From the sequence record PQ850594.1: DNA of 64,000 nt. The stretch is one strand, 5' to 3'. A model generated the notes under the pieces. It was not told the DNA's origin. It saw only the letters and a list, made by a program, of their open reading frames with translations, and did no database searches. Source of the stretch: Escherichia phage AnnaHegner_Bas87. How positions within the stretch are numbered: position 1 is the first letter of the stretch; each line of letters begins with the position of its first letter. Shown piece by piece: positions 11,275-61,762 of the stretch. The translations under genes and the position numbers were made by a program.

Positions 11275-11295
11275 GCCCTCTTCGGAGGGCTTTAT
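11275..11295 (+). terminator. rho-independent terminator-like hairpin
   Basis: GCCCTC-TTCG-GAGGGC followed by TTTAT. Confidence 0.4.
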
Positions 11296-11307
11296 GGAGG
11301 ATTATAA

Positions 11308-13476
11308 ATGTCTAGAGAGTTAATGCCCAAATCTGGGATAATGATGCCTCACGTGGTAGTTACTAGAGATGCCGCAGTAGTGGGTGTATCTACTGTAGAT
11401 GGGGCCGCTGGTGCTATCAACTTAACAGAAAAATACCTTCAGAAGTCTGACGCTGAAGCAACCTATCAAACGAAAGCAGAAGGGGCTACTAAGCAATATG
11501 TAACCGACGCTATCAACCCCATTATGACAAATGCTCTTTTTAAAGATGACCCCTTTGTTAATAATGACACACCTATTCGCTCTGGCGGTGGTAATGGTGT
11601 TGAATCGGTAGATATGATTAAAGTCACCCCTGAGAACACCATCAAACTAGGGAGCTATGCTTCTTCTGTTCAGGGGGTTGAGATTCATTCTGCTGGTCGT
11701 CTTCAGGTTGTTGACCAGAACGACTCTGGGGTCGAAACTAAATACCCGGTATACTCTAAAAGATATCGCCCAGAAGTTGAGGATTTACCTTTCGCTTCAA
11801 TTGGTTCCTATGTTAAAGACTCCAAAGGACGCACAATTGGTGTAACTCGTACTGGCATCAACTCTGATATCAAACAACTCACCCAAAAGGTCACATTTAC
11901 CCAACCTGTAACCGTACCTGATGCTGTGGGTGATTATGATGCAGTTACTTTGAGACAGCTTCGTAATAGTGGTGGCGGTTCTGGTGGTCCTACCATGAGC
12001 GGTATCTCTAACTTCGGAATTGGCGACTTTCATTTACGTGACAGCCGTGCTTTCATCCCAGCTTTTGAGGTAGTGTCTGATGGGCAGCTTTTGAATCGTG
12101 CTGACTACCCAGATTTATGGGCTTATGCACAACTGCTATCTCCAATCGAAGACTCTCTTTGGTTGTCTAATATCTATCAGAGGGGTAGGTATTCTACCGG
12201 AAATGGTACAACAACTTTCCGTGTTCCTGACCGAAATGGTATCCAAGAGGGGTCACTGAGAGCTTTATATGGCCGTGGTGATGGTGGTAATTCTGCTGCA
12301 AATGGTCAAGTGTTTGATTCTGCTGCACCGAATATCACATATGCGTCCCCTCACACAATGGTAACACTAGCCTCCGCTCCGGGGCAGGTGGCGACTGACG
12401 GGGCACTTCAATCGATCACTTCTACAGACAATGTGGCTCCAGTGGGGACTGGAGGTAAATACATATCCACAAACTTTGACGCATCACGTTCTAGTCCTAT
12501 TTATGGCCGCTCCACTGAGGAGATTCTGACCCGTAACTTTGTAGGCGTTTGGACTATTCGTGCGCATGGTGGTTTTACTGCTGCTAATACTTCTTGGTCA
12601 GTTATTAATAGTGATGCAAACCGTCCTGCTGGTGGAACTCGAGCAACTAGTGGTTCTGTTGTTGCTGAATATAAAATTGGTTCAGAAGTAGAGGCTTCTA
12701 CTACGCTCCAAACTGATGCTTATATCGACGGAGTTTATTATGGGATTATCAATGTTTATAATAAAACCAAAGGAGTTACCAAGCAATTAGCTTTTGACGA
12801 TTCTGGAACCCTGAACTCTGATAGATATGCTGCTCGGTTTGGCACTTTGATGGCTTGGAGTGAAACAGGAACTAAGAGAGGCACCTTCTCTATGGACAAC
12901 CAAGGGATAGGGACTAACTTCCCCTTCAACTCCATACTAAGTGCTTCTCAAGCAACTAGTGGGGGGTACAAAACTACCACTCATGTTGGCATGATTCACA
13001 ACGATGCTGAGTCTTTTGCTGATTCATGCTGGCATGTTGCAGGGGATGAAGACAACAAATACGGTTGTCGTTTAACCCTTAGGCCAAGCAGGAATGAGAT
13101 TTATTACTACACTTGGCAGCCCGGCTCCACTGGAACTTACACTCTTGCTATGAATCCTGTGTCTGATGAAAAGTTGAAACATAACATCCAAGATATCTCG
13201 CCTGATGAAGCAATTCGTGCGATAAAAGGTTTGGATTTCAAATCGTTTGTGTACAACAATGATAATCAAGGAAGAACTCGTCGTGGTATCATTGCACAGC
13301 AGGCAGAGAAAGTTGAACCTCTTTATGTTAAAACTCGTAAATTCCATGACAACGATGGGGTAGAGCAGGAACAGAAAGAGTTGGATGCAACTCCAATGCT
13401 TTTAGATACCATGCAGGTTGTTCAAGATCTGCTGAAGCGTATTGAAGTTCTAGAAGCGAAGTTAGCAGAGAAGTGA
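11308..13476 (+). CDS. tail fiber/tailspike with C-terminal intramolecular chaperone (peptidase S74-like) domain
   Basis: 722-aa ORF; C-terminal ...NPVSDEKLKHNIQDISPDEAIRAIKGLDFKSFVYNN...GIIAQQAEKVEPLYV... resembles autocleaving chaperone domain of endosialidase-type fibers. Confidence 0.6.
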   Translation: MSRELMPKSGIMMPHVVVTRDAAVVGVSTVDGAAGAINLTEKYLQKSDAEATYQTKAEGATKQYVTDAINPIMTNALFKDDPFVNNDTPIRSGGGNGVESVDMIKVTPENTIKLGSYASSVQGVEIHSAGRLQVVDQNDSGVETKYPVYSKRYRPEVEDLPFASIGSYVKDSKGRTIGVTRTGINSDIKQLTQKVTFTQPVTVPDAVGDYDAVTLRQLRNSGGGSGGPTMSGISNFGIGDFHLRDSRAFIPAFEVVSDGQLLNRADYPDLWAYAQLLSPIEDSLWLSNIYQRGRYSTGNGTTTFRVPDRNGIQEGSLRALYGRGDGGNSAANGQVFDSAAPNITYASPHTMVTLASAPGQVATDGALQSITSTDNVAPVGTGGKYISTNFDASRSSPIYGRSTEEILTRNFVGVWTIRAHGGFTAANTSWSVINSDANRPAGGTRATSGSVVAEYKIGSEVEASTTLQTDAYIDGVYYGIINVYNKTKGVTKQLAFDDSGTLNSDRYAARFGTLMAWSETGTKRGTFSMDNQGIGTNFPFNSILSASQATSGGYKTTTHVGMIHNDAESFADSCWHVAGDEDNKYGCRLTLRPSRNEIYYYTWQPGSTGTYTLAMNPVSDEKLKHNIQDISPDEAIRAIKGLDFKSFVYNNDNQGRTRRGIIAQQAEKVEPLYVKTRKFHDNDGVEQEQKELDATPMLLDTMQVVQDLLKRIEVLEAKLAEK

Positions 13477-34690: not shown

Positions 34691-34699
34691 TATACATTA
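34691..34699 (-). promoter_or_regulatory. phage promoter-like motif TAATGTATA (minus strand)
   Basis: ~60 nt upstream of start 34631. Confidence 0.4.
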
Positions 34700-46987: not shown

Positions 46988-47521
46988 TTATACACCTTTA
47001 GATGCAACTACCCCATTGCTGCCATTGTAACGACCCTTCACTGCATAGGAATCATCACCAGCGTGAGAGTGTTCAAACATAACCATCTGACCAACACGCA
47101 TCCCAGCACGAACTCGTAAGCTGTGGTTGTGGGTAACGTTATGGAATTCAAAGGTCAGCTTACTGCTGTTAAACCCTGCATCAGCCCAACCAGCATGTAA
47201 GTGGTTCAAACCACAACGAGCCATTGAGGAGCGAAGTACAAACAGACTTGAGATGTTATCTGGAAGGTTAAACTCTTCCATTGAGTGCGCTAAGAAGAAT
47301 TGTCCCGGAGTGATGACAATACCATCTTCAGGGATTTTCACCTCTTTCCACTTGAGGTTTTCTTTAGCATCAATGTCAACAATGCCGTCAGCCTGTTCTT
47401 CAACAAGGATAGTATCACCAATACGGATATCCACACTAGCAGCGTTAACATATTTATGCTCCGCATCTAAAAAGCCATTATCAATAACACTGTGTAATTC
47501 TTGAGAACCTAAAAGACTCAT
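46988..47521 (-). CDS. dCTP deaminase / dUTPase-family enzyme
   Basis: ...NAASVDIRIGDTILV... and downstream motifs typical of dCTP deaminase. Confidence 0.6.
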   Translation of the reverse strand: MSLLGSQELHSVIDNGFLDAEHKYVNAASVDIRIGDTILVEEQADGIVDIDAKENLKWKEVKIPEDGIVITPGQFFLAHSMEEFNLPDNISSLFVLRSSMARCGLNHLHAGWADAGFNSSKLTFEFHNVTHNHSLRVRAGMRVGQMVMFEHSHAGDDSYAVKGRYNGSNGVVASKGV

Positions 47522-48966
47522 GAGTTTCTGTTTCCTTGTACAGATGATGCCAAATTGTTAATCATGTTACGAGCTGTTTCACGAGTCAGCGTAACACCTG
47601 CTAAGTTACTATCAAGTTCACCAACTAATTCACGAGCTGTTGCTCGGAGTTCTGCACCAAGTGTAGTGTTAGAATGAGCCAGACCATTACGACGACCGAC
47701 AGGTCGAGGAGTATTGTTAGCATCATTAGCTAAAGATGCAAAACCAATACGAGCAGCTTCACGAGCGGCTATAGCTGCTACCCGATCTTCCGTAGGGGTT
47801 GGCAAATCACCAACTTCTACACGTTCTATATCACTAGAACGTAGACCCTGAACAACAGAGCTAACTGTTTCCCATGAACGACGGGAGCGCTGCAAATCAC
47901 CCATAGATGGAGAAGAAGCAGGTCGAACAGTTACTCCACCTGTATCATGAGTGACGTGCCATGTACGAGTACCCATTCCAGAAGAACGGGCACTACCAAA
48001 ACTACCAGTGAAAGTATCACGAGGTGACTCTGTAGCAGGTGCTGCGAATCTTGTCTGTTGCCAAGAGTCACGTCTGTCAGTTCCCGGAGTCCAAGGCTGC
48101 GTAATTGCTTCAGCACCTATAGTGGTTAATCCGCTAGACCATTCTGTCTGTAGATTAACTTCCTCGTCCAGATAACTACGACCCCTTTCCTGAGGAATGT
48201 TTAATATAGTTTCCATCATCTTCAGGGTATAATGACGACGCTGATTCTGATATAAATTTACACCAGCCATAGGTCCAACTAAATCACTAATCAGGTGAAC
48301 TTCTGGCTCACCGAAAGCTCCCATTGCAAGGTGCATGTATTCAGTAGAACTGCTATAAACTGCAACAGTTGCTTCAGGCCACTTCTTGTGAACATACTTC
48401 ATTTCACGACTAGATACCACAGGAATGTCACGAGTGTATGACATTGCAAACAAACCTTCGTTTGACACATACAGATTACCAAGAGTCATAAACCCTTGAC
48501 AGATCATAGGAAAGCGACGGCTTAAAGTATCCATATCCAAAGGTAGATTAATCATCATCTGGATTTTAACTTGATCAATCTCAATTTCCAGAATCTCTTG
48601 GAAAGTGAAAAGCGCTTCAGCATAGGTTGTCCCGTTAACAGGCTGAATTAGTCGAGATGTAACCTGAAGCCCCTTACTTTCTGTCCAAGATAAGAAGTTG
48701 TCAAGGAATAGTGCAGCATTACCTACGTTAGCAGGGCTGTTTTCTTGACGAGTGTTCCAACGAAGCCCTCCTTGAACTAGGAAGATATCAACATCATTCG
48801 GAGTTCTATTTTGAAAGAACGTATCACGGATAGCACCACCTGCAATAACAGGATAGATGCCATCAGGGACTACGTTATCTCTGATCAAATTACGAATCAG
48901 GTCAAGCCCTACACTGAGGGCTTCTCCTTCTTGAAGGTTCAATTCAGATAGTGGAATCTTAATCAT
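47518..48966 (-). CDS. Pol-beta-superfamily nucleotidyltransferase (CCA-adding/poly(A) polymerase head-like) with low-complexity C-terminal half
   Basis: ...VIAGGAIRDTFFQNRTPNDVDIFL... (GG..RD...DxD); C-terminal ~230 aa rich in R/S/T/G/A. Confidence 0.55.
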   Translation of the reverse strand: MIKIPLSELNLQEGEALSVGLDLIRNLIRDNVVPDGIYPVIAGGAIRDTFFQNRTPNDVDIFLVQGGLRWNTRQENSPANVGNAALFLDNFLSWTESKGLQVTSRLIQPVNGTTYAEALFTFQEILEIEIDQVKIQMMINLPLDMDTLSRRFPMICQGFMTLGNLYVSNEGLFAMSYTRDIPVVSSREMKYVHKKWPEATVAVYSSSTEYMHLAMGAFGEPEVHLISDLVGPMAGVNLYQNQRRHYTLKMMETILNIPQERGRSYLDEEVNLQTEWSSGLTTIGAEAITQPWTPGTDRRDSWQQTRFAAPATESPRDTFTGSFGSARSSGMGTRTWHVTHDTGGVTVRPASSPSMGDLQRSRRSWETVSSVVQGLRSSDIERVEVGDLPTPTEDRVAAIAAREAARIGFASLANDANNTPRPVGRRNGLAHSNTTLGAELRATARELVGELDSNLAGVTLTRETARNMINNLASSVQGNRNS

Positions 48967-48968
48967 TT

Positions 48969-49517
48969 CTACATTTTCCAGTTGAGAGATGGGGGATTCT
49001 TATAATCAAATCCAGCCATTTGGCAAAGACACATGTAAACCTTAACTGTCAAGTTAACGTCTTGTTCACAATACGTGAACATGTCTTCAGTGAAAGCATC
49101 CCATGCTTCTTCCTGTTCACCATAGTCACCCTTCAGCTCTCCCAGAAATTCGCCCCATTGCTTGAGGCCATGACCGCGAGGTCCGTGTCTAGGGTCGCCT
49201 TTGGGATATTCTGGACTGTCACCAATACGGTCAGGCTTGAGGTATCGACTCAGGCACAGGGTATCAAAGACATTAAAACGAAAAGGTATCACATGAGAGT
49301 AGAATTTAAACAAAGCAGGAAGGTCAAAATCAATAATATTGTGACCTATTACTACATCAGCTTCTTTCAGTTTGTGTAGTGCTTCTTCAATTTGGTGAGG
49401 GCGATACCCCCACCGTTCTCCAGACAGTACATCAAATATCCATATACACCAGACATTCTGAATACCATCATAGAGGTTATCACCTTCAATATCAAACGCA
49501 TACAGTTTCTTTACCAC
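48969..49517 (-). CDS. DEDD-family 3'-5' exonuclease (DnaQ-like)
   Basis: Exo I YAFDIEGD, Exo [16 protein letters not shown], Exo III YCEQDV. Confidence 0.6.
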
Positions 49518-51336: not shown

Positions 51337-51594
51337 TTAATAAAACGATCGTATTTCTTCCCACACGTCATCTTGCAAGTTTCGGAAACCCTGCAAGGTT
51401 TGCTTTGTTCTGTGAATAAATTCTTCAGAGTGCTTATCAGGTGTGAGCATACTGACAAACTTTTCATAGCGATTAATCTTCCACCGCATCTTTAAGTAGT
51501 CAGATTCAAGCTTTCTTAATTTCTGCCTGTCAGTTACTGTCATCCTTCTCACCTGCCAGATATGCTGTCCAGTCACCCGATTCAACCAGAACAT
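51337..51594 (-). CDS. hypothetical protein
   Basis: 85-aa ORF; likely shorter true start. Confidence 0.35.
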   Translation of the reverse strand: MFWLNRVTGQHIWQVRRMTVTDRQKLRKLESDYLKMRWKINRYEKFVSMLTPDKHSEEFIHRTKQTLQGFRNLQDDVWEEIRSFY

Positions 51595-51961
51595 CTTGTT
51601 CTTCGTCGATGTGATAAATCCACGCTTCCACAGTTTCGCCGCTGTCCAATAATACTGGAATCAGCGTACGCTTATAAAAGGTGTATGGGTTATCATTGCC
51701 ACGGTGACCTTCCAGACCGTCATATGGGCCTTCCAGACCAGCTTGGGTTGTTTCAAAGACTTCTACACGAACAGGCTTACCATTGCTGTCATGCTCCAAA
51801 GATACACTTGGGAAGTATGCTGTGCAATACTGATACAGGTTACAGTTGTTTACTGTCCACCCTTCACCAATAGACACACCACCTGCACGAGCATTGATAG
51901 CATGGTTGTGTTGACCTTTTCTCAAGCTTCCGTAAGTTGCAACTAGTACTTTATCAGACAT
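51530..51961 (-). CDS. GGCT/AIG2-like protein (gamma-glutamyl cyclotransferase fold)
   Basis: N-terminal VLVATYGSLRKG motif; 143 aa. Confidence 0.5.
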   Translation of the reverse strand: MSDKVLVATYGSLRKGQHNHAINARAGGVSIGEGWTVNNCNLYQYCTAYFPSVSLEHDSNGKPVRVEVFETTQAGLEGPYDGLEGHRGNDNPYTFYKRTLIPVLLDSGETVEAWIYHIDEEQDVLVESGDWTAYLAGEKDDSN

Positions 51962-52027
51962 TATATTACCTTTTAGTGTTTCAGTTAAATTCGAACTAGC
52001 CTCCTCTTTCGAAGAGGCTAAAGCAAA

Positions 52028-52213
52028 TCATTCTACTTCGAAGTGTTTGATCACACCAGTCAACACATCAGATTGGAATGTACCCACTAGCTCTGTACCT
52101 CGGAAGAAGTTAACACTTGTTCCAAGTGATTCAAAGCGATCTGCTTGAATGTCCAGAGATTGAATATTTCCTTCTGCTGACATTGTACGAAACATGATTG
52201 TGTATTTATTCAC
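52028..52213 (-). CDS. hypothetical small protein
   Basis: 61-aa ORF in cassette. Confidence 0.35.
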   Translation of the reverse strand: MNKYTIMFRTMSAEGNIQSLDIQADRFESLGTSVNFFRGTELVGTFQSDVLTGVIKHFEVE

Positions 52214-52452
52214 AGACTTGTTACTCCCTTATCTGCTTGTGCAATTGCGATGATACGCTCAGCACATTCCATTGAATATTTATCACCTCGTTTGAGGAAG
52301 GTGATGATTGCAGAGAACTGATTACCAATCATTCTCTTATTTGTGATACCGAACTCTTCACAGAGTTGGTTGATAGCTTTACGAGAGCCTACAATCAGAG
52401 GCTCTTTTTCTTCGGTCATTCCACGGCTGATCAAATCTTCGATAGACAACAT
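52210..52452 (-). CDS. hypothetical small protein
   Basis: 80-aa ORF in cassette. Confidence 0.35.
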   Translation of the reverse strand: MLSIEDLISRGMTEEKEPLIVGSRKAINQLCEEFGITNKRMIGNQFSAIITFLKRGDKYSMECAERIIAIAQADKGVTSL

Positions 52453-52478
52453 TACAAATTCCTTTTTGTTTAATTTAA

Positions 52479-53714
52479 TTACAGAGTTACTGCTACTTCG
52501 CTACCTTCAACATTGACAGACTCTAACTTGCGAGGGTTATGAATCTGTACCGGATTAACCGGAACGTTCCAACCACTACGGTAGAAGTTACGACCATCAC
52601 AGAACAAAATGACATTGGCAGACATTGCATTCGGTTGCAGGTTGTTATGGACATGACGGATATCTGCAATCCAATAACCACGAGACAAAGTGTAACCAGT
52701 AGGTGCATTACGAATAGTTTGAGTATTCATCTGACCTTCCAGTTGCATCTCTTCAGGAACTACATCTACCGAATCAACTGGCTGTGCTACCTGATCTTCC
52801 AGTGCAAAGTTTTCATCATTAGCGCTTTCGCTGTCATCTACCAACTCACCGTCTCCATCTTCAATCGGAGTCTGGTAAACCACTTTATACTGAGGAGTAT
52901 AGAGAGGGTTCTGAGCTTTAACAAACTCAAGGATGTTATGGCGGTAGGTATCCAGAGTTGTACCAGTCAGGCCCGGTGCTGTATTAACTTCCAGTACCCA
53001 CGCTTCTTGACCTTTGGTGATAATATCAACTGCACCGAAATCCAGACCCATTGATTCAACAGCTTTCACCGCATTGATCAGAGAGGCGTCATTCGGAGCA
53101 TCTGTGAAGGAGCTTGAGTAAACCCAGCCAGTGTGGTGATTACGAATATCTTCACGATAGTTAGGGTCTTCGCGATAACCATTGCGACGAATCTTCTTCT
53201 GAACATAGGTGATTACACCTTTGAACACATGGACACGCCACTCACGACGTGGGCCTTGAATGCCTTTAGTGTACAGTTCAGCTCGACCAAGACCATCACC
53301 CGGTTCTACAACAACAATACCCGAACCAGAGTGACCAGTCAGCTCATGGCGCTCATACACAATATTACCAGTGTTTGACCACTCCTGAGCAGTCTCTTGA
53401 ACATCTGTGTATTCCACAGTTTTAACACCTGCTTGGTCCATCACACTGAAAGCACGACGTTTGTTCGCTGCCATATATAAGGCTGCGGTACGGTTAAGGA
53501 CGGTTGCAGAACCAAAGAATGATTCAGGATAGCGACGGTTCCCGTAGTTAACAACCACATCACCTTCACGAGAACGCCAGCGGCTATTCTCTGAAAGAAG
53601 ACCCATCACGTTAGCATTGATGCGTTCATCACGGATAGTATCACTGATAGCAGATACTAGAGCGTTAACAGAATCAGACGGGCCATACGGAAGAACACGG
53701 ATACGAGTAGTCAT
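52479..53714 (-). CDS. ATP-grasp ligase (RimK-like)
   Basis: ...DFGAVDIITKGQEAWVLEVNTAPGL... ATP-grasp signature; ~130-aa C-terminal extension. Confidence 0.6.
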   Translation of the reverse strand: MTTRIRVLPYGPSDSVNALVSAISDTIRDERINANVMGLLSENSRWRSREGDVVVNYGNRRYPESFFGSATVLNRTAALYMAANKRRAFSVMDQAGVKTVEYTDVQETAQEWSNTGNIVYERHELTGHSGSGIVVVEPGDGLGRAELYTKGIQGPRREWRVHVFKGVITYVQKKIRRNGYREDPNYREDIRNHHTGWVYSSSFTDAPNDASLINAVKAVESMGLDFGAVDIITKGQEAWVLEVNTAPGLTGTTLDTYRHNILEFVKAQNPLYTPQYKVVYQTPIEDGDGELVDDSESANDENFALEDQVAQPVDSVDVVPEEMQLEGQMNTQTIRNAPTGYTLSRGYWIADIRHVHNNLQPNAMSANVILFCDGRNFYRSGWNVPVNPVQIHNPRKLESVNVEGSEVAVTL

Positions 53715-53716
53715 TT

Positions 53717-53947
53717 TTAGATACCTTTTAGTTTAAGAATTTCGTTACGACAGGATTGAATTTTAGCTTCGATTGCCCAATACTCAGCGAACATTTCGTC
53801 TTCTTGGGCATCGCTTGGAGAGTCAATTAAGTTAAAAGCAAACGGATACAGCTTTCGCTGCTCCGTTACCAGTTGTTGAAGTCGGAGTTGTTGATACTCC
53901 AGCATTGTCAGGTGAGGCTTAGCTCCCTTGCTTGACATGAGGCTCAA
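53717..53947 (-). CDS. hypothetical small protein
   Basis: 76-aa ORF. Confidence 0.35.
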   Translation of the reverse strand: MSLMSSKGAKPHLTMLEYQQLRLQQLVTEQRKLYPFAFNLIDSPSDAQEDEMFAEYWAIEAKIQSCRNEILKLKGI

Positions 53948-54152
53948 CTTTAATCCCCTTCATTTTAACATAGTCAGCCAACACGTTATTGATAACGGTT
54001 GGAAAAGGGATTTCTACTGGAGAGTCAACCAGCTTCCCAATACCTTCTTGCATCCACTTCTGGATTGCTCGGAGGTTATCACATCCTGTGCTTGTCATCG
54101 GAATACGGCGGGTAGTTACCACGTTATCCAACATCAGTTTACGAACTTCCAT
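53919..54152 (-). CDS. hypothetical small protein
   Basis: 77-aa ORF. Confidence 0.35.
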   Translation of the reverse strand: MEVRKLMLDNVVTTRRIPMTSTGCDNLRAIQKWMQEGIGKLVDSPVEIPFPTVINNVLADYVKMKGIKVEPHVKQGS

Positions 54153-54163
54153 AACTATACCTC

Positions 54164-56197
54164 TTAGTGTTTACCTTTACAGTAATCTGAATTACAGATC
54201 ACCCTGTTTTCTTTGTTCAGTGAGCAAGTTTCTGCATCACGCCACGGAATTTGTTTATAACAGACTGCACAAAACCCAATTGAAGTCCAGAGGGCTTTTG
54301 TAAACTCAGCTGTTCGTTGTCCATCGTAACTGACAACTGTTTTTCGGAGAGAGGTTGACTTTTCTGGAAATGTCTCCGCTTTCTCAGCGGGTACCTCCTT
54401 TGGGGCATTCTTTGGACCATAAACAGAGATGGCATAAGTATCACCACCACGTTTTTCCAAATACGAATTAGGAACATCTGCAAGTGTGATGTCCCCTGAA
54501 CGTTTTGCTGAGCTGACCATTACAATCATACGGCTAAGCATACGTTCATCAACACGAACAGCTACTTCAGGACGACGTGGGTTGGTTGTGTCTACTGCTT
54601 TAGTCCAAATATAACCTTCAGATAGAGTAACATTCTTTACTTTATCTTTGATTTCTTTGGAGCAGATATAACAAACGTCTTCACCACGAAGTTTACTCAT
54701 TTCGTTGTCAAACTCGAAATCAGTCTTGACTTCACCACAGATAGCACATACACCCAAAGGCACATCTTCTTCCTCTTCAGAGGTTTTAGATAACGCTTCG
54801 AAGCATTCTGGATGCCAGTATGCCTGATAAGCAAACACAGCCTTACGAGCATCTTTCCAGTCAATGTGCTTATCACAACCACCACAGTCACCATGAGAGT
54901 GAGATTCCCAGAACTTACGAGTGACTTCTACACCATTCTTAGTGATGAAGGAGTCCTCTGCATCAAAAGGGATATCATCATCAAAATCAGCAGTAGTGCT
55001 TTGAGGCTCCTTATCTGTAGCATCAACAAACAGCCCTGAAGTTAGTACGAGGCGAATCATACTGTCCACTTCGGAGATACAAGCGATTGTCCCGCGATAT
55101 ACTACCTTTGGGTTTTCAAGAGCCTTAAGATATTCATCTTTGGCTACGTTGTGAACATCCCCTTCGACATACTCTTGGGCTTTATCATCGTAGATGTAAC
55201 CAACCATCTTACCACGATCTGTGTTGTTATAAGCATGGAACTCGTGAGGAATAATATCCACACGACCATCACGACGATAAGGAAGACCACGATCGGCAGC
55301 CAGTTTGTTCTGGTCTTCAATCGCTTTACGACGACGAATGTCTCCGCTTGTCACGCCGGGCTTGTCGTCTTTGTTTCCGTAAATGTCGCTTGTGCTGCTG
55401 CTTGGTTTGTTTGTCTGTTGGTTCTGATAAAGAGAGGAGTTCGAGTAATAGCCGCCCCAGCGACTCGTTACCGTAAAAACCGGAAGCTTGTGCTCCACCT
55501 CTTGAACCAGAGTCATACGACTGTTAGACACATCAAAGATATACTCAGTTCCCACTTTACACTCGAAGTGGTCATTGATACGGTTCTTGTGGGATTTAGA
55601 ACGCTCTAAAATCCACATAAGCATAGCTTCTTCAGAAGCCCCAAACCAATCCAAACCACAGCGGGCTAGGTGGAAAGGACGCTCATCATTACGGATAATG
55701 TGAAGCGTGTTGTCTTTAGCATCATGCCAAATCAAAGTGAATGCACCATCCAGTTTTTGGATAGTCTCTGCTGCTCCAATGGTGTTAATTGAGTGGCAGA
55801 TGTTTTCACTATCAACTTCGAAACGCTTACTGTCAGGAAGGAGATCTTGATCTAACAGGGTTCCATTATGAACCAGAGTAATATCCCCGTGAGTAAATGG
55901 GTGAGCATTTCGAGCATTGACAGCCCCACGAGTGGCATGTCGGCTGTGACCAACAATCCACGAAGGAGGAACTACGTAGTTCGTAAGCCCTTTGGTAATA
56001 TTTGTATATTCTGTCTGGAGCATAAAAGCATAAGAAGGAAGAGCTTCTTTATAAGAGAAGACTTGCTTTTCACCTTTACGCTGACCAAACACACCAGTTG
56101 AGTGCTGTCCACGGAAAACACCAGCATACAGAAGTTGGTTGAAAATGTCCAAATCTGCTGAGGTCATGTTGCCGCCAGCTAATACGATACCACAAAT
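54164..56197 (-). CDS. class-II (Ntn) glutamine amidotransferase domain fused to Cys-rich zinc-ribbon region; probable AUU start directly before catalytic Cys
   Basis: in-frame ...TAG AAA ATT TGT GGT ATC GTA... gives (I)CGIVLAGGNMTSADL...FRGQHSTGVFG matching GAT-II N-termini; AGGTGG 8 nt upstream of ATT; no asparagine-synthetase PP-loop seen. Confidence 0.55.
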   Translation of the reverse strand: MCGIVLAGGNMTSADLDIFNQLLYAGVFRGQHSTGVFGQRKGEKQVFSYKEALPSYAFMLQTEYTNITKGLTNYVVPPSWIVGHSRHATRGAVNARNAHPFTHGDITLVHNGTLLDQDLLPDSKRFEVDSENICHSINTIGAAETIQKLDGAFTLIWHDAKDNTLHIIRNDERPFHLARCGLDWFGASEEAMLMWILERSKSHKNRINDHFECKVGTEYIFDVSNSRMTLVQEVEHKLPVFTVTSRWGGYYSNSSLYQNQQTNKPSSSTSDIYGNKDDKPGVTSGDIRRRKAIEDQNKLAADRGLPYRRDGRVDIIPHEFHAYNNTDRGKMVGYIYDDKAQEYVEGDVHNVAKDEYLKALENPKVVYRGTIACISEVDSMIRLVLTSGLFVDATDKEPQSTTADFDDDIPFDAEDSFITKNGVEVTRKFWESHSHGDCGGCDKHIDWKDARKAVFAYQAYWHPECFEALSKTSEEEEDVPLGVCAICGEVKTDFEFDNEMSKLRGEDVCYICSKEIKDKVKNVTLSEGYIWTKAVDTTNPRRPEVAVRVDERMLSRMIVMVSSAKRSGDITLADVPNSYLEKRGGDTYAISVYGPKNAPKEVPAEKAETFPEKSTSLRKTVVSYDGQRTAEFTKALWTSIGFCAVCYKQIPWRDAETCSLNKENRVICNSDYCKGKH

Positions 56198-56274
56198 TTT
56201 CTAATCCACCTGAAGGGTAAACCCTTTCATCTAATTAACCTTTAAATGCGCCCTGTATAAGAGCGCCCGTTGTG

Positions 56275-57375
56275 TTACAGTAGTCGTTCTAATTGCATTT
56301 CCAGATGGTCTGGAATATAACCAGTGACGTTATCATCACTGCTACCTGATTCACGCATCAATGCAAACATGTGACGAATTTCACGAACCGTTGCGATTCG
56401 AGTGCTTTCAATCTGAGGGGTGTAGTAGGTCATGATCTCTTCGTAGACACTGTTGGCATTACCGCGCACATATCCCAAGAAACCATAGAAGTCATTCATA
56501 TCACGTAAGTTGATAAGGACTTCACCATCAGGGCCAGTCTGTTGCACACGAACACGACCAACCAAAGTCACAGATTGCTCACGACAGAAGAGAATATCAC
56601 GAGCAAGACGATACCCTTCAGTGAGATCACTGTCTCTTGGAGTATAGTCTAGGGGTAGATGTTGAATCATAGGAGCGAAGCGCAGCTCATTCAACTTCTC
56701 AACATAAGCTTCATTGTCTAAATCTGCATATTCAACAGCCAGTTTCTTGAGAACCAAGAAGCGGTTGACCAGATTCAGAAGTTGGCTCTTTTTCCACTTC
56801 GGCTCTGAGATACGGAACTCAACAGAACCAAATTGAGATAGAGGCAAAAGATTAAGGGAGGTATATTTATCCCAGCTATTAACAAGAGAGTGGAAGAAAG
56901 CTTCCCCGTCTCGGTTGAACGCTGACGAAGCATTCATAACTTGTGCTTGAACGACAGCAAAAGCTGGACAGAAGTTGCTACGATAGCGATGGTATCCAGA
57001 ACATTTGAACATCATCTTTTCATAGAACGTCCATCCAAGAATAACTTTCTTAAGGATGTTACTATCAGCGTCACGCATATCCATATGAACATGAGTGGAG
57101 CAGCGCCAAGTTCCCTCGGCTCCAGAATCCTGTACTGCTTCACTCAGATTGTTAATAGCACGAAGTAATTCTTCACCGTTGTAAGGTCGTGCACATACTA
57201 ATTCACAACCATCACGAAGAGAGCCATCTTCAGTACAAACCCACATATCAGCGTCAATGTCAGTTGTACCTTCGACTTCTAACTCAATACCAACACCACA
57301 CTGAAAAGCAATACTTGGATGCGGTTCAGATAAGCGAGGGTTACGGTATCCAAAAACTTGTGCTACGGTTGTCAT
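56275..57375 (-). CDS. GS-like carboxylate-amine ligase (amidoligase) candidate
   Basis: 366 aa with ...WRCSTHVHMDMRD... (HVH motif); adjacent to second such gene. Confidence 0.45.
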   Translation of the reverse strand: MTTVAQVFGYRNPRLSEPHPSIAFQCGVGIELEVEGTTDIDADMWVCTEDGSLRDGCELVCARPYNGEELLRAINNLSEAVQDSGAEGTWRCSTHVHMDMRDADSNILKKVILGWTFYEKMMFKCSGYHRYRSNFCPAFAVVQAQVMNASSAFNRDGEAFFHSLVNSWDKYTSLNLLPLSQFGSVEFRISEPKWKKSQLLNLVNRFLVLKKLAVEYADLDNEAYVEKLNELRFAPMIQHLPLDYTPRDSDLTEGYRLARDILFCREQSVTLVGRVRVQQTGPDGEVLINLRDMNDFYGFLGYVRGNANSVYEEIMTYYTPQIESTRIATVREIRHMFALMRESGSSDDNVTGYIPDHLEMQLERLL

Positions 57376-57998
57376 AATGATTCCACCAACTCTACATTAT
57401 ATGATGACAGGTCTGAAGAAATATGCTTGAACTTCTCCAGAAGGTTTAAAGATTGACGACCATTGTCGCCATAACCAGCTTCAAGAAGCACGTTTCCAAC
57501 GTAAGCCCCTTTGTAATAAACTTTTCCATCGACAGGATTGATATAGATGAAACGAGTAACCAACCCTTCAAACTCTGGATTAAACAGGTTGTACACCAAA
57601 TCACCCGGAATCGAACGTCCGAGAGAAGGTGGAGTACCACGAAGTTTATTCCCCATCAAGCCTTTAGCTCGCTGACGAACAGGGTTGATATGGGTCCAGC
57701 TCACCATGTTATTACCATGCTGAAGGTATCCTACATCTGGAGACTCCAGAATGAGGCTGTGATCAAACACTGGGATATTACTAACAATCTGACGTTCAAA
57801 CTGACCTTCGGAGTTTTTAGTCCAGCGTTCCGCCTCAAACACTAAAGACATTTCAGCGTCGTGTGAGTAGTCGTCAATATCAAAGTTACCTTGCTGACGA
57901 ACATCAAGCACATATAGAGGGAGGTTTTTACCATCAGGTGATCGCTGGGCAATCCATGTTCCACAATAATAGTGTTGAAAATCTCTTAACAAGCTCAC
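57372..57998 (-). CDS. hypothetical protein (cassette member)
   Basis: 208-aa ORF overlapping neighbours by 4 nt. Confidence 0.45.
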   Translation of the reverse strand: MSLLRDFQHYYCGTWIAQRSPDGKNLPLYVLDVRQQGNFDIDDYSHDAEMSLVFEAERWTKNSEGQFERQIVSNIPVFDHSLILESPDVGYLQHGNNMVSWTHINPVRQRAKGLMGNKLRGTPPSLGRSIPGDLVYNLFNPEFEGLVTRFIYINPVDGKVYYKGAYVGNVLLEAGYGDNGRQSLNLLEKFKHISSDLSSYNVELVESL

Positions 57999-58007
57999 AA
58001 TATCACC

Positions 58008-58859
58008 TTATACAATCTGGAGTTTAGAGGAGAATTTATCCGCTTCTTTAACATCGTTACTGTTGATGATGTTGTGAAGCTTTTCAATTGGAAGGCGAGA
58101 ATGAAGTGACATCAATACTTCCATATCACAGCCTTGAACAACCTTATCAACTTGCTCATAAACAAACTTGCGGGTTGACTTCTCGCCAATCCAGAAGTTA
58201 GAAAGAGAACGATATTCAATACCGTAATCTTTGTAGCGAATGGCAGAAGCCTTTCCGTATAACTCTTTACGACGAGTGTCTTTATCCATGATCACAGCTG
58301 GCAAGGACAGGAAGTAATCACACAACACACCCAACATCATTTGAGTCTGACGACTAATTTCCAGCGTACCAGTGACGCCAAGGTGAACATGACCGCCAGC
58401 AGTACGCAGACCTTTGTCTGTCGCTACTGGAGATGGGTTTTTCTGACCAGTGAAGGCGTTGAAATCAGGAGTACAACCAAATACAAAAGCTGACGGGTGG
58501 AATGATTCAAGCTCTTCTGAAGTGAACACATGAGAGCTAATCCCAAGCGCTGCTTCCAGACCACGATCATTCAGGATTTTGTTAGTCAGATCAATACCAC
58601 GCTGAATATTATCATCAAACGCTTCAAATCCTTTCTGTGGGTTAATATCGAATTCAGCCAGAACGTTGTCTTCTTGAAGACGAACATCAGGGGCCAGATC
58701 AATTTTGTTGTCTTTAGAGCAGCCCAGCTTACCAGCCACAGAGGTGATAATACCAGAAGCAGTACGAACAAACATTTCAGGGTCAGAACCAATAAGGAAA
58801 GCACGCTTAGTCATTGTAATACTCCACGAGTTCATCAAAAAGGGAAACAACACGAGCAC
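58008..58859 (-). CDS. GS-like carboxylate-amine ligase (amidoligase) candidate
   Basis: ...RTAGGHVHLGV... motif; probable start MTKRAFLIG at 58814 overlapping upstream stop (AATGACTAA). Confidence 0.45.
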   Translation of the reverse strand: MLVLFPFLMNSWSITMTKRAFLIGSDPEMFVRTASGIITSVAGKLGCSKDNKIDLAPDVRLQEDNVLAEFDINPQKGFEAFDDNIQRGIDLTNKILNDRGLEAALGISSHVFTSEELESFHPSAFVFGCTPDFNAFTGQKNPSPVATDKGLRTAGGHVHLGVTGTLEISRQTQMMLGVLCDYFLSLPAVIMDKDTRRKELYGKASAIRYKDYGIEYRSLSNFWIGEKSTRKFVYEQVDKVVQGCDMEVLMSLHSRLPIEKLHNIINSNDVKEADKFSSKLQIV

Positions 58860-59757
58860 CAGCTTCTTCTGGTGTCATTGAGGAAGGTACTGCTTGCATC
58901 AGTCGTTCGATAAAACTGCGAACAGTGATTCTGTCCATACGCTGATCTAATACTTCTCGCTTGTGACCTGCACAAGTTGACCAGAGACGCAACCACTCAC
59001 TCATACTTTCATAATGGTCAGGGTCTTGGTCACGACGGCGTGCCATACGACGGAGAACTCCATCATTATGGTTTCGTACATAACCATCTCGGTTATCATC
59101 AACACCGAACACATTCTGAACCCATACGTTTTCAGAAAATTCATCAGTGGTGCAAATTAGTGGCAGAAATGCAATTGCACTCATGTCACCATCAAAATAA
59201 GTCGCTGCTGACTCATCGGTTGAGTCTACGTCATTACTATAACACCAGCGACCAAAGAAGTTACGACTTAAACCAGCTAAGCGTAGAGCTAAACCGATTC
59301 GTTGTCGCTTAAGCAACTCTTCCTTGTCTTGTACGCCTTCCTGAAGGAACTCCATTCCATTAAAATCACCATCCAAATAACTACGGATGGTCATTAGTCC
59401 AGTAAACACCTTGTCTGCTGGATGGTTTCGAAGGTTCACGGCAATGGAGTTCACCGAAGTGACAGAGAACATATCTTTATAGCAAGACATTGAGTTAAAA
59501 ATGTCTGTTGCTTCAACTAAAGCTCTTTCGATATCTTTAGCCGGCACGCCATAAAAATTGTGAGGCCAGAAGTTAATAACTTCAATTTCTGAAGTTCTGT
59601 CACGAAGGCTTGTTCGGTTACGACTTTCACCGTTAATGTCTGTAACAGAATACATGTGCATACAGTTAAAAGTACCAAAGCAAGCTCTTCCTTTGAACAC
59701 TGACTCACCGAAATCCTCTGCCGGTGTTACCGGAGCAATCGATGCGGAGATTGACAT
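58807..59757 (-). CDS. hypothetical protein (cassette member)
   Basis: 316-aa ORF. Confidence 0.45.
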   Translation of the reverse strand: MSISASIAPVTPAEDFGESVFKGRACFGTFNCMHMYSVTDINGESRNRTSLRDRTSEIEVINFWPHNFYGVPAKDIERALVEATDIFNSMSCYKDMFSVTSVNSIAVNLRNHPADKVFTGLMTIRSYLDGDFNGMEFLQEGVQDKEELLKRQRIGLALRLAGLSRNFFGRWCYSNDVDSTDESAATYFDGDMSAIAFLPLICTTDEFSENVWVQNVFGVDDNRDGYVRNHNDGVLRRMARRRDQDPDHYESMSEWLRLWSTCAGHKREVLDQRMDRITVRSFIERLMQAVPSSMTPEEAGARVVSLFDELVEYYND

Positions 59758-59765
59758 ATTCGCCT

Positions 59766-60983
59766 CTATTTATTAAAGAATAATTTTTCCATAATGGTTT
59801 CCCACTCTTCTGAGGGGAGGGTTGAGAACCCGTTTCCGTGAAGCCTGTTTGTCATGCAACTAATAATATTGTACATGTTGTAGCTTCGGGTGGATTCTGT
59901 TCCATTGTTCCAGTTATAACCGAAAACAATTTTATCGAAGGAGGTTTTATCCGTAGTTACTTCTCGGATGAACTCAACCAAGAGCGATTTCTCTGTGATG
60001 ACCGCACGTTCACCATCTGGCAGATTACAATACTGAGGAAGAAGGATTGGTAAGAACATCGAATTGTTCACTCGACAATCGCGCACACCTTCACTGCGAT
60101 AGATTAGGCTTGAGAAGTCTTCATCACGCAGGTGTCCTTCACCTTCAGTGTATTCACACTGTCGCCATTTGGTCTGGCGAGGTTTAACCATTGTACTACC
60201 AACGCCTACTGTATACAGAGACGCTTGGAAGATACATGAATCGTAATCATTCCCTGTTAAAGCAACTTGCTCATTGCCGAACACATCCACTGAAGAGTTG
60301 ATCAGTCGGCTGAATGCAAGAGAGGCTAAAGGGGACCAACCTTTCTTATACATCTTGTTCAACATTTCATACACAGCAGATTTTTCATCATCTGTATAGA
60401 ATGTACGATTCAGCATCAGATAGAACAGAGCGCGATCAGCAGGACAACCATCAGTACAAACACCCATGAATCCTACTTCATGCCATACCAGACATGAGTC
60501 AGAATCCTTATCCATGAATGCTTCAAAGGCTTCCATTACAGCCCTGTCAGTAACATCAGGACGGTTGTTTTCTTCTGCCCATGTTTCTACATGAGAAGGA
60601 GGACGAGGGTCTCCATTCTCCACCCCTTCGCGGAAATATTGAGTGGTAATAGGCTTTTTATCACCATAACGTTTTACACCATAAGCGGGAAGGTGTGTAC
60701 CAGAGTTCCAGATGTACTTAATTTCGGACATAGGCATCATGTTTTCAAGAACGTTCTCTTCAGCAGTGCCTTGACGAACCATCATATTTTCACTCCACAC
60801 CTTAATGCGGATATTCCAGCCGTAGTTGCTGTCATACGTGTTATAATAATCAGGATCACCATCTTCATCTTCATCATAATCACCACCCTGATAGTAACCT
60901 GCTTTCAGGAAACCATAACAAGGAGGCCAGATGGTTACAACATCATCTGATTCTTTCCAGCTTTGAAGTGTTACAGGGAACAT
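59766..60983 (-). CDS. hypothetical protein (cassette member)
   Basis: 405-aa ORF, first long gene of cassette. Confidence 0.45.
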   Translation of the reverse strand: MFPVTLQSWKESDDVVTIWPPCYGFLKAGYYQGGDYDEDEDGDPDYYNTYDSNYGWNIRIKVWSENMMVRQGTAEENVLENMMPMSEIKYIWNSGTHLPAYGVKRYGDKKPITTQYFREGVENGDPRPPSHVETWAEENNRPDVTDRAVMEAFEAFMDKDSDSCLVWHEVGFMGVCTDGCPADRALFYLMLNRTFYTDDEKSAVYEMLNKMYKKGWSPLASLAFSRLINSSVDVFGNEQVALTGNDYDSCIFQASLYTVGVGSTMVKPRQTKWRQCEYTEGEGHLRDEDFSSLIYRSEGVRDCRVNNSMFLPILLPQYCNLPDGERAVITEKSLLVEFIREVTTDKTSFDKIVFGYNWNNGTESTRSYNMYNIISCMTNRLHGNGFSTLPSEEWETIMEKLFFNK

Positions 60984-60994
60984 CTTTTACCTCT

Positions 60995-61357
60995 TTACTC
61001 TGCTACCAAAAGGCTCAGAGATTTGCGAATGTAGTCAATACTACGGAAGTTTCGATAGTTCTCTTGGAAGCGCATTTTTTCAAACTCTGCTTCCTGAAGC
61101 TCTACCTCTGCTGCTTTATATCCTGATAAAGCTAAACTTACCACATCCTGAGGTAAGGTATTACGACGGCGAATAAGATATTTATTCGCTTTTAGTTTAC
61201 CTTGTGCACGAGCCATTTTGGCCTTTGCCGCCTTGATACCATGAGAAATCCAAAGCAGTTGCTGTTTCAGATCTTCCTCATCCATACCACCTAAATCATT
61301 TGCTACTTTATGAAGCGTAGACAGGTTCACATGGCCTTTAATGGGGCGTAGGTTCAT
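60995..61357 (-). CDS. hypothetical protein
   Basis: 120-aa ORF. Confidence 0.4.
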   Translation of the reverse strand: MNLRPIKGHVNLSTLHKVANDLGGMDEEDLKQQLLWISHGIKAAKAKMARAQGKLKANKYLIRRRNTLPQDVVSLALSGYKAAEVELQEAEFEKMRFQENYRNFRSIDYIRKSLSLLVAE

Positions 61358-61521
61358 AACTTCTCCTGTTTGTCACATTGATTGGTTAGCCAGTTGTAAG
61401 ACCCTCTGTTATTCTTGCTTAACTCGCAAGATGCAAAAGAGTACATCCTGACAAACCCCACAGTGGCTAAGCAAATAAAGATTGCTGCCAATAAGAATTT
61501 AGCTTTCAACTTATTATCCAT
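61354..61521 (-). CDS. unlisted small membrane protein ORF (55 aa)
   Basis: MDNKLKAKFLLAAIFICLATVGFV...; stop overlaps next ATG (ATGA). Confidence 0.3.
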   Translation of the reverse strand: MDNKLKAKFLLAAIFICLATVGFVRMYSFASCELSKNNRGSYNWLTNQCDKQEKL

Positions 61522-61762
61522 ACAACCTCTTCTTTGAACTTAAAAAAGGACTCTCATAAGAGAGCCAAGCTTTAAGGCCAATTAAATAGATATCACCCAA
61601 TATCTGTGGATAACCTGCTCTTAAAATATTCTATCCGACGGATGTTCGAGGATTATTCCTCTCCCTAGCATCGGCCCCATACGGGAAAGATTAAATTAAG
61701 ATTAGGTTAGTTGAGCCAGAATAGCTCACATAGCCCTCTGATACTCACGAGGGCTATAGATG

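Follow-up and report, generated by a model that had tools for sequence, protein, structure and literature searches.

Positions 51530-60983 on the minus strand of Escherichia phage AnnaHegner_Bas87 (PQ850594.1), a phiEco32-like podovirus (Gordonclarkvirinae) of which a 64-kb stretch was analysed (the window), hold a 9.5-kb operon with short or overlapping gene junctions. It combines five enzyme families: two ligases of the glutamine-synthetase (GS) fold, an ATP-grasp ligase, a class-II glutamine amidotransferase, and a GGCT-like cyclotransferase. An earlier note on this DNA, made from the letters, had described the block of minus-strand open reading frames (ORFs) and quoted the motifs AGGHVHLGV, CSTHVHMD, VLEVNTAPGL, and YGSL, all of which lie where it had placed them; the three proteins of unknown function and the four short ORFs that it listed are also present. 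Its enzyme-family calls held in profile searches, with GGACT, GATase_6, Amidoligase_2, and COOH-NH2_lig above threshold and ATP-grasp matched only weakly. By these matches, the block is the phiEco32-type amidoligase cassette, which has already been described. Iyer, Abhiman, Burroughs, and Aravind are said to have predicted it by comparative genomics in 2009, and the name "peptidoglycan modification cassette" is reportedly due to Hardies (2013); Pfam family PF14395 takes its name from the phiEco32-type cassette, of which we take this block to be the archetype. The cassette published under that name (PMC5498523) has the same five families in the same order and shows no difference in kind. Hence, the earlier observation was right and its assignment largely so; what the present analysis sharpens is the parts list and the likely chemistry.

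The best megablast match of the block is Escherichia phage OliverMaurmann_Bas86 (99.1% identity over the full stretch), and the block was found in 98 phage records. It is collinear with that of phage EP335, and an RNA element just upstream matches phiEco32 itself. Gene order is kept in Bruynoghevirus phiIBB-PAA2, Cronobacter phage GAP52, Vibrio phage SJSY21, EP335, and a metagenomic relative, the common order being unkA-like, unkB-like, COOH-NH2 ligase, unkC, Amidoligase_2, amidotransferase, DUF7195, ATP-grasp, and GGCT, usually followed by primase/helicase; these nine genes are collinear across Gordonclarkvirinae, Grimontviridae, Bruynoghevirus, and the one metagenomic relative. In Zobellviridae (O4 and IME234) and crAss-like phages (phi14:2 and cr108_1), most genes are present in rearranged order and still adjoin primase, UDG, ThyX, or a CCA-type nucleotidyltransferase. 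All enzyme ORFs, the ATP-grasp included, match PHROGs strongly, and every main gene is under purifying selection, with ratios of nonsynonymous to synonymous substitution (dN/dS) of 0.05 to 0.27 between the window and EP335. Being kept in 98 records, collinear in very distant phages, and under purifying selection, the block is far beyond chance. Judged from these comparisons, the conserved core comprises nine genes, more than are usually annotated. The additions to the cassette of 2009 are unkA, unkB, unkC, DUF7195, an ATT start of the amidotransferase gene, Peptidase_C26 as an alternative enzyme, and the structured RNA upstream (Table 1). An HNH endonuclease gene, absent from the window, is inserted in Bas86 at the junction of unkB and the COOH-NH2 ligase gene (positions 11285-11755 of the Bas86 locus; window 58807-58814), and the Bas86 annotation gives the ligase as a join of two pieces there. 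Somewhere in the block, about 500 to 600 extra bases are also present in most of the other close relatives. A PADLOC scan gave zero matches, and a tRNA scan of the window gave none.

Table 1. Features of the cassette and its upstream region in the window, and Peptidase_C26 ORFs of relatives
Feature	Position	Strand	Remarks
55-aa ORF, one hydrophobic segment, first after terminator	61354..61521	-	read by eye; annotated in Bas86
Structured RNA ending in intrinsic terminator	61536..61762	-	directly upstream of operon
120-aa ORF, directly upstream of unkA, same transcription unit	60995..61357	-	PHROG 11370; 55% aa identity to EP335
unkA, 405 aa	59766..60983	-	conserved cassette protein, apparently new fold
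unkB, 316 aa	58807..59757	-	probably distant unkA paralogue; PHROG 13102
COOH-NH2 ligase type 2 (glutamine-synthetase/GCS2 fold), 268 aa	58008..58814	-	PF14395, PHROG 3815
unkC, 208 aa, GTG start	57372..57998	-	SH3-like beta-barrel; likely binding or adaptor subunit
Amidoligase_2 (GS-fold carboxylate-amine ligase), 366 aa	56275..57375	-	PF12224, PHROG 7469
Class-II (Ntn) glutamine amidotransferase, predicted ATT start	54164..56197	-	GATase_6; beta-rich middle; zinc-ribbon modules
DUF7195 small protein, 77 aa	53919..54152	-	PF23825, E 3e-19
Short ORF, 76 aa, lineage-specific	53717..53947	-	PHROG 13464; dN/dS 0.53
RimK/MptN-like ATP-grasp ligase, 411 aa, C-terminal extension	52479..53714	-	PHROG 2599
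Short ORF, 80 aa	52210..52452	-	kept within Gordonclarkvirinae; 81% aa identity to EP335, dN/dS 0.12
Short ORF, 61 aa, fast-evolving	52028..52213	-	45% aa identity to EP335, dN/dS 0.56
GGCT/AIG2-like gamma-glutamyl(amine) cyclotransferase, 143 aa	51530..51961	-	GGACT, PHROG 2520
Peptidase_C26 ORFs in four relatives' loci (Zobellviridae, crAss-like, Rhizobium phage)	L011 5253-5873; L012 5399-6091; L005 7369-8001; L015 8983-9594		

Three of the cassette proteins are, as far as their sequences tell, ATP-dependent ligases with conserved metal- and nucleotide-binding residues and predicted activity, and these family assignments support the general view of the earlier note that the system forms amide bonds at the expense of ATP. 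The COOH-NH2 ligase matches PF14395 ("phage phiEco32-like") with an E value of 2.8e-8 (33.7 bits against a cut-off of 25) and PHROG 3815 with 2e-111 and occurs in 310 phage records. The earlier note had it at 58008-58859; the ligase assignment stands, but this ORF is over-extended, since homologues begin at ATG 58814, which is most likely the start. Invariant in eight phages are D11/E13, Q47/D49/N50/E54, R137, G140, H142, H144, R182, E200, and R202. Amidoligase_2 matches PF12224 (E 3.1e-8, 34.2 bits against a cut-off of 22) and PHROG 7469 (E 4e-142), with G29/E31/E33, S52, E58, C92, H95, H97, N175, and E186-F-R188 invariant. Both GS-fold ligases keep the acidic and HxH residues of the active site (ExE, HxH, and E-F-R in Amidoligase_2; D/E, Q-D-N-E, HxH, and E-x-R in COOH-NH2_lig), and a sequence search of solved structures with their two profiles gave nothing usable. 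The third ligase matches PHROG 2599, which its annotators name after RimK, with an E value of 5.8e-169, and stays just under the Pfam RimK cut-off (E 7e-4, 19.6 bits against 21). Its best sequence relatives are RimK, the enzyme of ribosomal protein S6 polyglutamylation, and MptN/CofF/LysX, but it lies far below the family cut-offs (NCBIfam MptN, E 5.8e-9 and 35.4 bits against 350; rimK_fam, E 2.9e-6 and 26.8 bits against 143; RimK equivalog, 21.8 bits against 331), carries a C-terminal extension of 140 amino acids (aa), and has no evident S6-like substrate. In the PDB, its sequence comes closest to RimK chains (E 0.002), and the Mg/ATP motif (E-x-N) is present as WVLEVNTAPGL and aligns to RimK residues 214-271. 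On this evidence, the protein is an ATP-grasp enzyme, yet not a demonstrable member of the RimK, LysX, or MptN family.

The amidotransferase matches GATase_6 with an E value of 2.6e-14 (53.8 bits against a cut-off of 27). It had been noted as a 667-aa protein with a CGIV N-terminus; the domain was correctly recognised, but not the start, since the ATG ORF of that length (start 56167) has neither the CGIV N-terminus nor the catalytic Cys. Both exist only when reading begins at ATT 56197 (677 codons), and an in-frame TAG lies two codons upstream. The ATT-TGT start is common to the window (56195-56197), Bas86, and EP335, four distant relatives have ATG-TGT, and a conserved hairpin, AAGGGTTTACCCTT, precedes the ribosome-binding site; the deposited EP335 annotation begins further downstream, so that the catalytic Cys is lost. 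Translation is therefore predicted to start at ATT, with the catalytic Cys directly behind the initiator. H83/R85, H109-N110-G111, and D128-S129 of the glutaminase are invariant in eight phages. Behind it follow a low-complexity linker, a beta-rich region, and a CxxC...CxxC zinc module kept across phage groups, to which the E. coli phages add two more zinc modules; past residue ~230, only this module and a weak LIM/zinc-finger match were found, in agreement with the Cys-rich, zinc-ribbon-like region described before. No PP-loop, asparagine-synthetase, or other fused synthase domain was detected with Pfam and NCBIfam, as the earlier note had said for the PP-loop, and the NCBIfam models of GlmS, PurF, and AsnB cover the glutaminase part only, below threshold; EgtC matches weakly (E 0.006), and a Ddl model is likewise reached among the cassette proteins at a score under its NCBIfam cut-off. 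Going by its domains, the architecture does not appear to be that of an ammonia-channelling synthase. When a Bruynoghevirus was subjected to directed evolution, independent lines gained parallel missense changes in just two of these genes, those of amidoligase and amidotransferase (PMC11450229).

The cyclotransferase matches the Pfam family GGACT (PF06094; E 8.9e-16, 59 bits against a cut-off of 22.8) and PHROG 2520 (E 4e-41), and Y10-G11-x-L13 and D81-x-L83-E84-G85, including the catalytic Glu, are invariant in six phages. The cassettes of O4, IME234, and cr108_1 encode a Peptidase_C26 protein with an intact Cys-His-Glu triad, which is the family of gamma-glutamyl hydrolase and PuuD; a search of the first 50,000 of the 50,509 bases in the O4 record revealed no GGCT. 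That the two are strictly exclusive alternatives is refuted by Rhizobium phage RHph_N3_13, which has both. The cassette Peptidase_C26 protein occurs in 59 phage records and has been labelled by depositors as amidotransferase or carbamoyl phosphate synthetase. Three unrelated types of enzymes that cleave gamma-glutamyl amides thus recur beside the ligases: N-terminal nucleophile (Ntn) glutaminase, GGCT, and C26. Two of them, the Ntn glutaminase with its intact active site and GGCT, are by family membership specific for a gamma-glutamyl amide with a free alpha-amine. GGCT chemistry requires a glutamyl residue with a free alpha-amino group, and therefore, the pathway would pass through an H2N-Glu-gamma-CO-NH-R species, the very compound that results when a GS-fold ligase joins glutamate to an amine. 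The presence of C26 instead of, or beside, GGCT in distant relatives likewise points to a free gamma-glutamyl-amide intermediate; enzymes of both families act on small gamma-glutamyl compounds.

We tentatively favour, at somewhat short of an even chance, the view that the operon encodes a cytoplasmic multi-enzyme pathway that builds, and then trims, a gamma-glutamyl or peptide-like amide chain on a low-molecular-weight acceptor. It would operate in the pre-replicative and replicative phase of infection. One GS-fold ligase would couple the gamma-carboxyl group of glutamate to the amine of the acceptor, and the remaining ligases would form further amide bonds, the ATP-grasp enzyme most likely adding alpha-linked glutamate. 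The gamma-glutamyl group may then be taken off again by GGCT or, in other phages, by the Peptidase_C26 hydrolase. The amidotransferase, with zinc ribbons in place of a synthase domain, could deliver ammonia to the neighbouring Amidoligase_2 or act as a gamma-glutamyl amidase, and unkA, unkB, unkC, and DUF7195 may be further subunits, whether enzymes or adaptors. The most plausible candidate for the acceptor is a peptidoglycan-precursor peptide or a polyamine. In the biosynthesis of butirosin (BtrJ, ATP-grasp; BtrG, GGCT-like) and of ergothioneine (EgtA, ligase; EgtC, Ntn amidohydrolase), glutamate is attached and later removed. The cassette resembles both in that an ATP-dependent glutamyl ligase is accompanied by a GGCT-like or class-II-amidotransferase-like enzyme; it differs in that no carrier protein, pyridoxal phosphate enzyme, methyltransferase, or other tailoring enzyme was recognised in it, in that the homology is at the superfamily level only, and in that its host is a lytic phage. 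Because known pathways use gamma-glutamate as such a transient handle, we prefer a small-molecule pathway to plain protein tagging, and eight or nine genes fit metabolite chemistry better than simple tagging. Proteomics of SU10 preparations detected peptides of the ATP-grasp, amidotransferase, and GGCT proteins (PMC4281155), and cassette proteins are therefore made during infection.

Several points weigh against this view. The amidotransferase may be either a gamma-glutamyl amidase or an ammonia donor to a separate partner, for which the neighbouring Amidoligase_2 is the obvious candidate. Zinc ribbons, SH3-like barrels, and C-terminal extensions of ligases often bind proteins or nucleic acids, so that a macromolecular target would fit equally, and RimK, the nearest characterised relative of the ATP-grasp protein, modifies a protein. 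That the same type of bond would be made and cleaved within one operon is accounted for by analogy only. Finally, the literature that we found holds no experiment on substrate, product, or phenotype of the cassette, only citations of the 2009 prediction, in agreement with the earlier note, which knew of a computational prediction but of no experimentally defined substrate or role.

Since polyamines are one candidate acceptor, it is imaginable that the GS-fold ligases gamma-glutamylate putrescine or spermidine in the manner of PuuA/PauA and that GGCT or C26 frees the amine again, giving the phage control over free polyamines for DNA replication and packaging. In the Puu/Pau pathways, a GS-fold ligase attaches the gamma-glutamyl group as an amide, a C26 hydrolase later takes it off, and this PuuA/PuuD pairing recurs in the relatives whose cassettes carry C26 (O4, IME234, cr108_1, and RHph_N3_13); GGACT acts on gamma-glutamylamines, and the cassette was always embedded in the replication module of the phages compared. 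For Pseudomonas aeruginosa, host of cassette-bearing Bruynogheviruses, accumulated polyamines are reported to hamper phage replication, according to the summary in PMC11898732. The argument is, however, one of pure analogy: the window has GGCT and not C26, its ligases are not PuuA orthologues (no NCBIfam match), and the cassette comes without the oxidase and dehydrogenase steps and with two extra ligases and an Ntn glutaminase. Such a role would leave three ligases, unkA/unkB, and the Ntn glutaminase unexplained, and hosts already encode the pathway; we regard it as distinctly improbable.

The other candidate acceptor leads to the reading under which the cassette has been published, namely that ligases and amidases remodel the stem peptide on murein precursors in the cytoplasm, for example by amidation or added residues, and so change the wall of the infected cell for superinfection exclusion or in preparation for lysis. 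The stem peptide has a gamma-glutamyl linkage, free carboxylates, and a free amine, and in Gram-positive bacteria its amidation by a ligase and a glutaminase (MurT/GatD) is established. As in MurT/GatD and AsnB-type peptidoglycan amidation, the cassette would combine a ligase and a glutaminase to amidate a carboxylate, but it has neither a Mur-ligase nor an asparagine-synthetase domain, and its glutaminase is of class II with zinc ribbons. Moreover, the stem peptide contains N-acylated D-isoglutamate, while GGCT and the Ntn glutaminase need an L-gamma-glutamyl group with a free alpha-amine. Apart from the name used in PMC5498523, cell-wall modification is proposed in PMC10580990 and PMC11318856; these three papers see its purpose in blocking superinfection, PMC10580990 has secondary metabolite synthesis as another option, and all three cite the 2009 prediction. 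The carriers are mostly phages of Gram-negative hosts, described as podoviruses in the source papers of the records examined. On the other hand, no experimental support was found in the literature, no Mur-ligase, transpeptidase, or envelope-targeting domain was detected with Pfam and NCBIfam, and the cassette is grouped with replication genes rather than with lysis or exclusion genes. Remodelling of the cell wall as such therefore appears unlikely to us.

The proteins that have no assigned enzyme family bear on the nature of the target. The fold ascribed to unkA and unkB is confidently predicted and matches no solved structure; in a library of viral structures, the only matches of unkA are uncharacterised proteins of other cassette-bearing phages, with two proteins per genome in GAP52 and Aeromonas phage LAh_8 that correspond to two syntenic ORFs. 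Its sequence family comprises 23 clusters among 1.84 billion proteins, a set in which the unkA profile reached no other family. For unkB, no Pfam or PDB match was obtained. An ORF of 290 to 320 aa occupies the unkB position in Bruynoghevirus, GAP52, SJSY21, and the metagenomic relative. An hhalign comparison of unkA with unkB is weak (E 0.067) and aligns PAD[RK]..LM..R and W.Q...G.G[HY].R[DN], and in a local hmmsearch either profile places the two syntenic GAP52 ORFs at the top (E 0.02 to 0.5). Taken by themselves, these sequence comparisons are merely suggestive of paralogy; the structures support it better, and unkA and unkB are likely a divergent paralogous pair with a phage-only fold. Their invariant Cys, His, Asp, and Arg residues suggest that they are catalytic. 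unkC belongs to one PHROG in E. coli and Pseudomonas phages alike and is an SH3/Tudor/KOW-like barrel protein, likely serving as a binding or adaptor subunit. Sequence searches of solved structures with the profiles of unkA, unkB, unkC, and DUF7195 gave nothing usable. DUF7195, which lies between amidotransferase and ATP-grasp in Bruynoghevirus, GAP52, SJSY21, and the metagenomic relative, ranks first in conservation among the genes of the block (91% aa identity to EP335, dN/dS 0.046) and is the sole short ORF conserved across phage families. From the look of its sequence, it might conceivably be a ribbon-helix-helix protein.

The suggestion of the earlier note that the four short ORFs encode peptide substrates is not supported by this comparison: the 61-aa and 76-aa ORFs evolve fast (dN/dS 0.53 to 0.56, window against EP335), and the termini of DUF7195 are not conserved. 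As substrates of the RimK or Pup type with a C-terminal Glu, the small ORFs were rejected as well, the Glu ends of the 61-aa and 120-aa ORFs being lost in EP335. These results bear on the possibility that glutamate or a short peptide is put on a host or phage protein, by polyglutamylation of the RimK type or as a pupylation-like gamma-glutamyl-lysine isopeptide, and that the amidases reverse or edit the modification. RimK is among the closest characterised relatives of the ATP-grasp protein, the Pup ligase PafA is a GS-fold ligase, and GGACT-type enzymes cleave epsilon-(gamma-glutamyl)-lysine; furthermore, the zinc ribbons of the amidotransferase, the SH3/Tudor/KOW barrel of unkC, and the extensions of ATP-grasp and amidoligase resemble macromolecule-binding modules. 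Like the cassette, pupylation (PafA/Dop) combines a GS-fold ligase with an amidase whose target is a gamma-glutamyl or glutamine group, but the cassette has no Pup-like protein with a conserved C-terminal Gln or Glu and no link to a proteasome. More generally, no conserved tag-like small protein was found among the short ORFs, the GGCT and C26 families are known on small molecules and not on intact proteins, nine conserved genes are many for tagging, and no data point to a target. We consider a protein target rather unlikely and retain the small-molecule acceptor.

The four conserved proteins unkA, unkB, unkC, and DUF7195, all of them phage-only, also argue against a plain role in nitrogen or amino acid metabolism, in which the enzymes would raise the turnover of glutamine, glutamate, or glutathione. 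Similar phage genes (amidoligase, amidotransferase, "glutathione synthase," and GGCT) have been read as auxiliary genes of nitrogen metabolism (PMC10945688), and the enzyme set does resemble the gamma-glutamyl cycle. However, zero cassette proteins reach the NCBIfam cut-off of any housekeeping enzyme family, the amidotransferase has no synthase domain, and the four phage-only proteins have no housekeeping place, which makes this explanation hardly credible.

The genomic setting ties the cassette to replication. In Bas86, small early genes are followed by the cassette and then by primase/helicase, DNA polymerase, dCTP deaminase, and ThyX; the cassette is not one of the small early genes but starts past a terminator at their boundary and continues directly into primase/helicase and the replication genes, as it likewise does in distant phages. 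Host takeover or counter-defence, which the earlier note suggested from a place in the early-transcribed arm, is a possible role. A gene for a CCA-adding-type nucleotidyltransferase adjoins the replication genes in the window (~47500-49000, annotated in Bas86) and in Vibrio phage IME234 (15505-16254 of its locus), and in GAP52 an RNA ligase 2 gene comes directly after the cassette, so that RNA-repair-type genes recur near it. The cassette part of Vibrio phage V07 (MT135025.1, 349 kb, flagged UNVERIFIED_ORG) resembles the gene layout of the 50-kb podovirus IME234 and ends at the terminase gene; the V07 record may be a chimeric assembly.

The terminator, a strong hairpin with a U run at 61566-61549 just ahead of the first ORF of the block, belongs to a structured RNA of roughly 200 nucleotides, not described before, that lies just ahead of the operon. 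The 240-nucleotide gap that holds it is ~95% identical between the window and EP335, while the flanking proteins are ~50% identical. The element was found in 103 phage records, with ~70% identity in Salmonella phage 7-11 and relatives, and its fold has a z-score of -3.9. An alignment of eight phages gives a strand-specific structure consisting of a 5' hairpin, a long-range helix around three inner helices, and the terminator. Of its 61 pairs, 12 show compensatory changes, most of which trace back to a single deep divergence of two phage groups while being spread over many pairs, and 98.5% of cells are paired, against 38 to 52% with the partners slid. The bases flanking a GAGG/CCUC hairpin (window ~61654 and ~61639; alignment columns 121 and 136) covary as A:G or C:A independently of phage group, which suggests a non-canonical or tertiary pair. 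Rfam returned no match at E<=1, nhmmer found no members in the GAP52 or metagenomic-relative cassette loci, and an exact-pattern scan of viral contigs yielded four contigs only. The sole perfect DnaA-box 9-mer of the window (TTATCCACA, minus strand, 61605-61613; ~0.5 perfect matches are expected by chance per 64 kb) lies inside the element and is invariant in the eight phages; its conservation may reflect RNA structure and not DnaA binding because some of its bases make up the 3' strand of the long-range helix. The phiEco32 gp36 promoter consensus tAATGTAtA does not occur in exact form upstream of the cassette (on the minus strand, it does so only at 34699 and 41049), and no sigma-70-like site was found in the 240-nucleotide gap. 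The element could be a small RNA, 3'-end derived or stand-alone; it could also work in cis, as an attenuator or antiterminator controlling whether early transcription proceeds into the cassette and the replication genes.

The same setting invites the idea of an amino acid-derived adduct on phage DNA or nucleotides, since in several lineages the cassette adjoins primase, UDG, and thymidylate synthase genes. DNA hypermodification or a related protective chemistry would explain the striking resistance of Gordonclarkvirinae to restriction systems, for which the BASEL study knew no mechanism; the window contains 15 EcoRI and 23 EcoRV sites, and in viral metagenomes amidoligase and amidotransferase genes co-occur with thymidine-hypermodification genes (PMC8989533). 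However, no base-activating enzyme (dUMP hydroxymethylase or other base-hydroxymethylase, 5-hydroxymethyluracil [5-HMU] kinase, DpdA, or TET/JBP-like enzyme) is present in the Bas86 annotation or among the cassette proteins as searched with Pfam and PHROG, the thymidylate synthase of Bas86 is of the ThyX type, and no report of unusual bases was found in the literature. In the 64 kb of the window, CCWGG occurs once against ~74 expected, GATC has an observed/expected ratio of 0.41, GAGCTC is absent against 14 expected, and CTGCAG occurs once against 17 expected. Such strong avoidance of CCWGG, GATC, and several 6-bp palindromes indicates that the DNA has long been exposed without protection, and the site pattern is better explained by unmodified DNA under lasting restriction pressure than by blanket hypermodification; we hold this explanation to be very unlikely. 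A bolder combination, and in our eyes a long shot, would explain the restriction resistance by a product linked to replication: either DNA, nucleotides, polyamines, or a replication protein would carry a gamma-glutamyl or peptidyl adduct, the structured RNA and its terminator, placed between early and middle genes, would gate expression, and unkA/unkB would be enzymes of a new fold.

In sum, the extended parts list and the probable gamma-glutamyl-amide chemistry show what to look for in the function of a cassette whose annotation has relied on analogy for over 15 years. It is carried by at least 310 sequenced phages, including phages of Escherichia, Pseudomonas, Vibrio, Aeromonas, Salmonella, and marine hosts and crAss-like gut phages. 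The close relatives Bas86-94 grow on E. coli K-12 with restored O-antigen (PMC11990801), which makes the question experimentally tractable. The function, once known, would close an annotation gap in therapeutic phages such as Kuravirus and Bruynoghevirus, and it could reveal new amide-bond chemistry or a new counter-defence.

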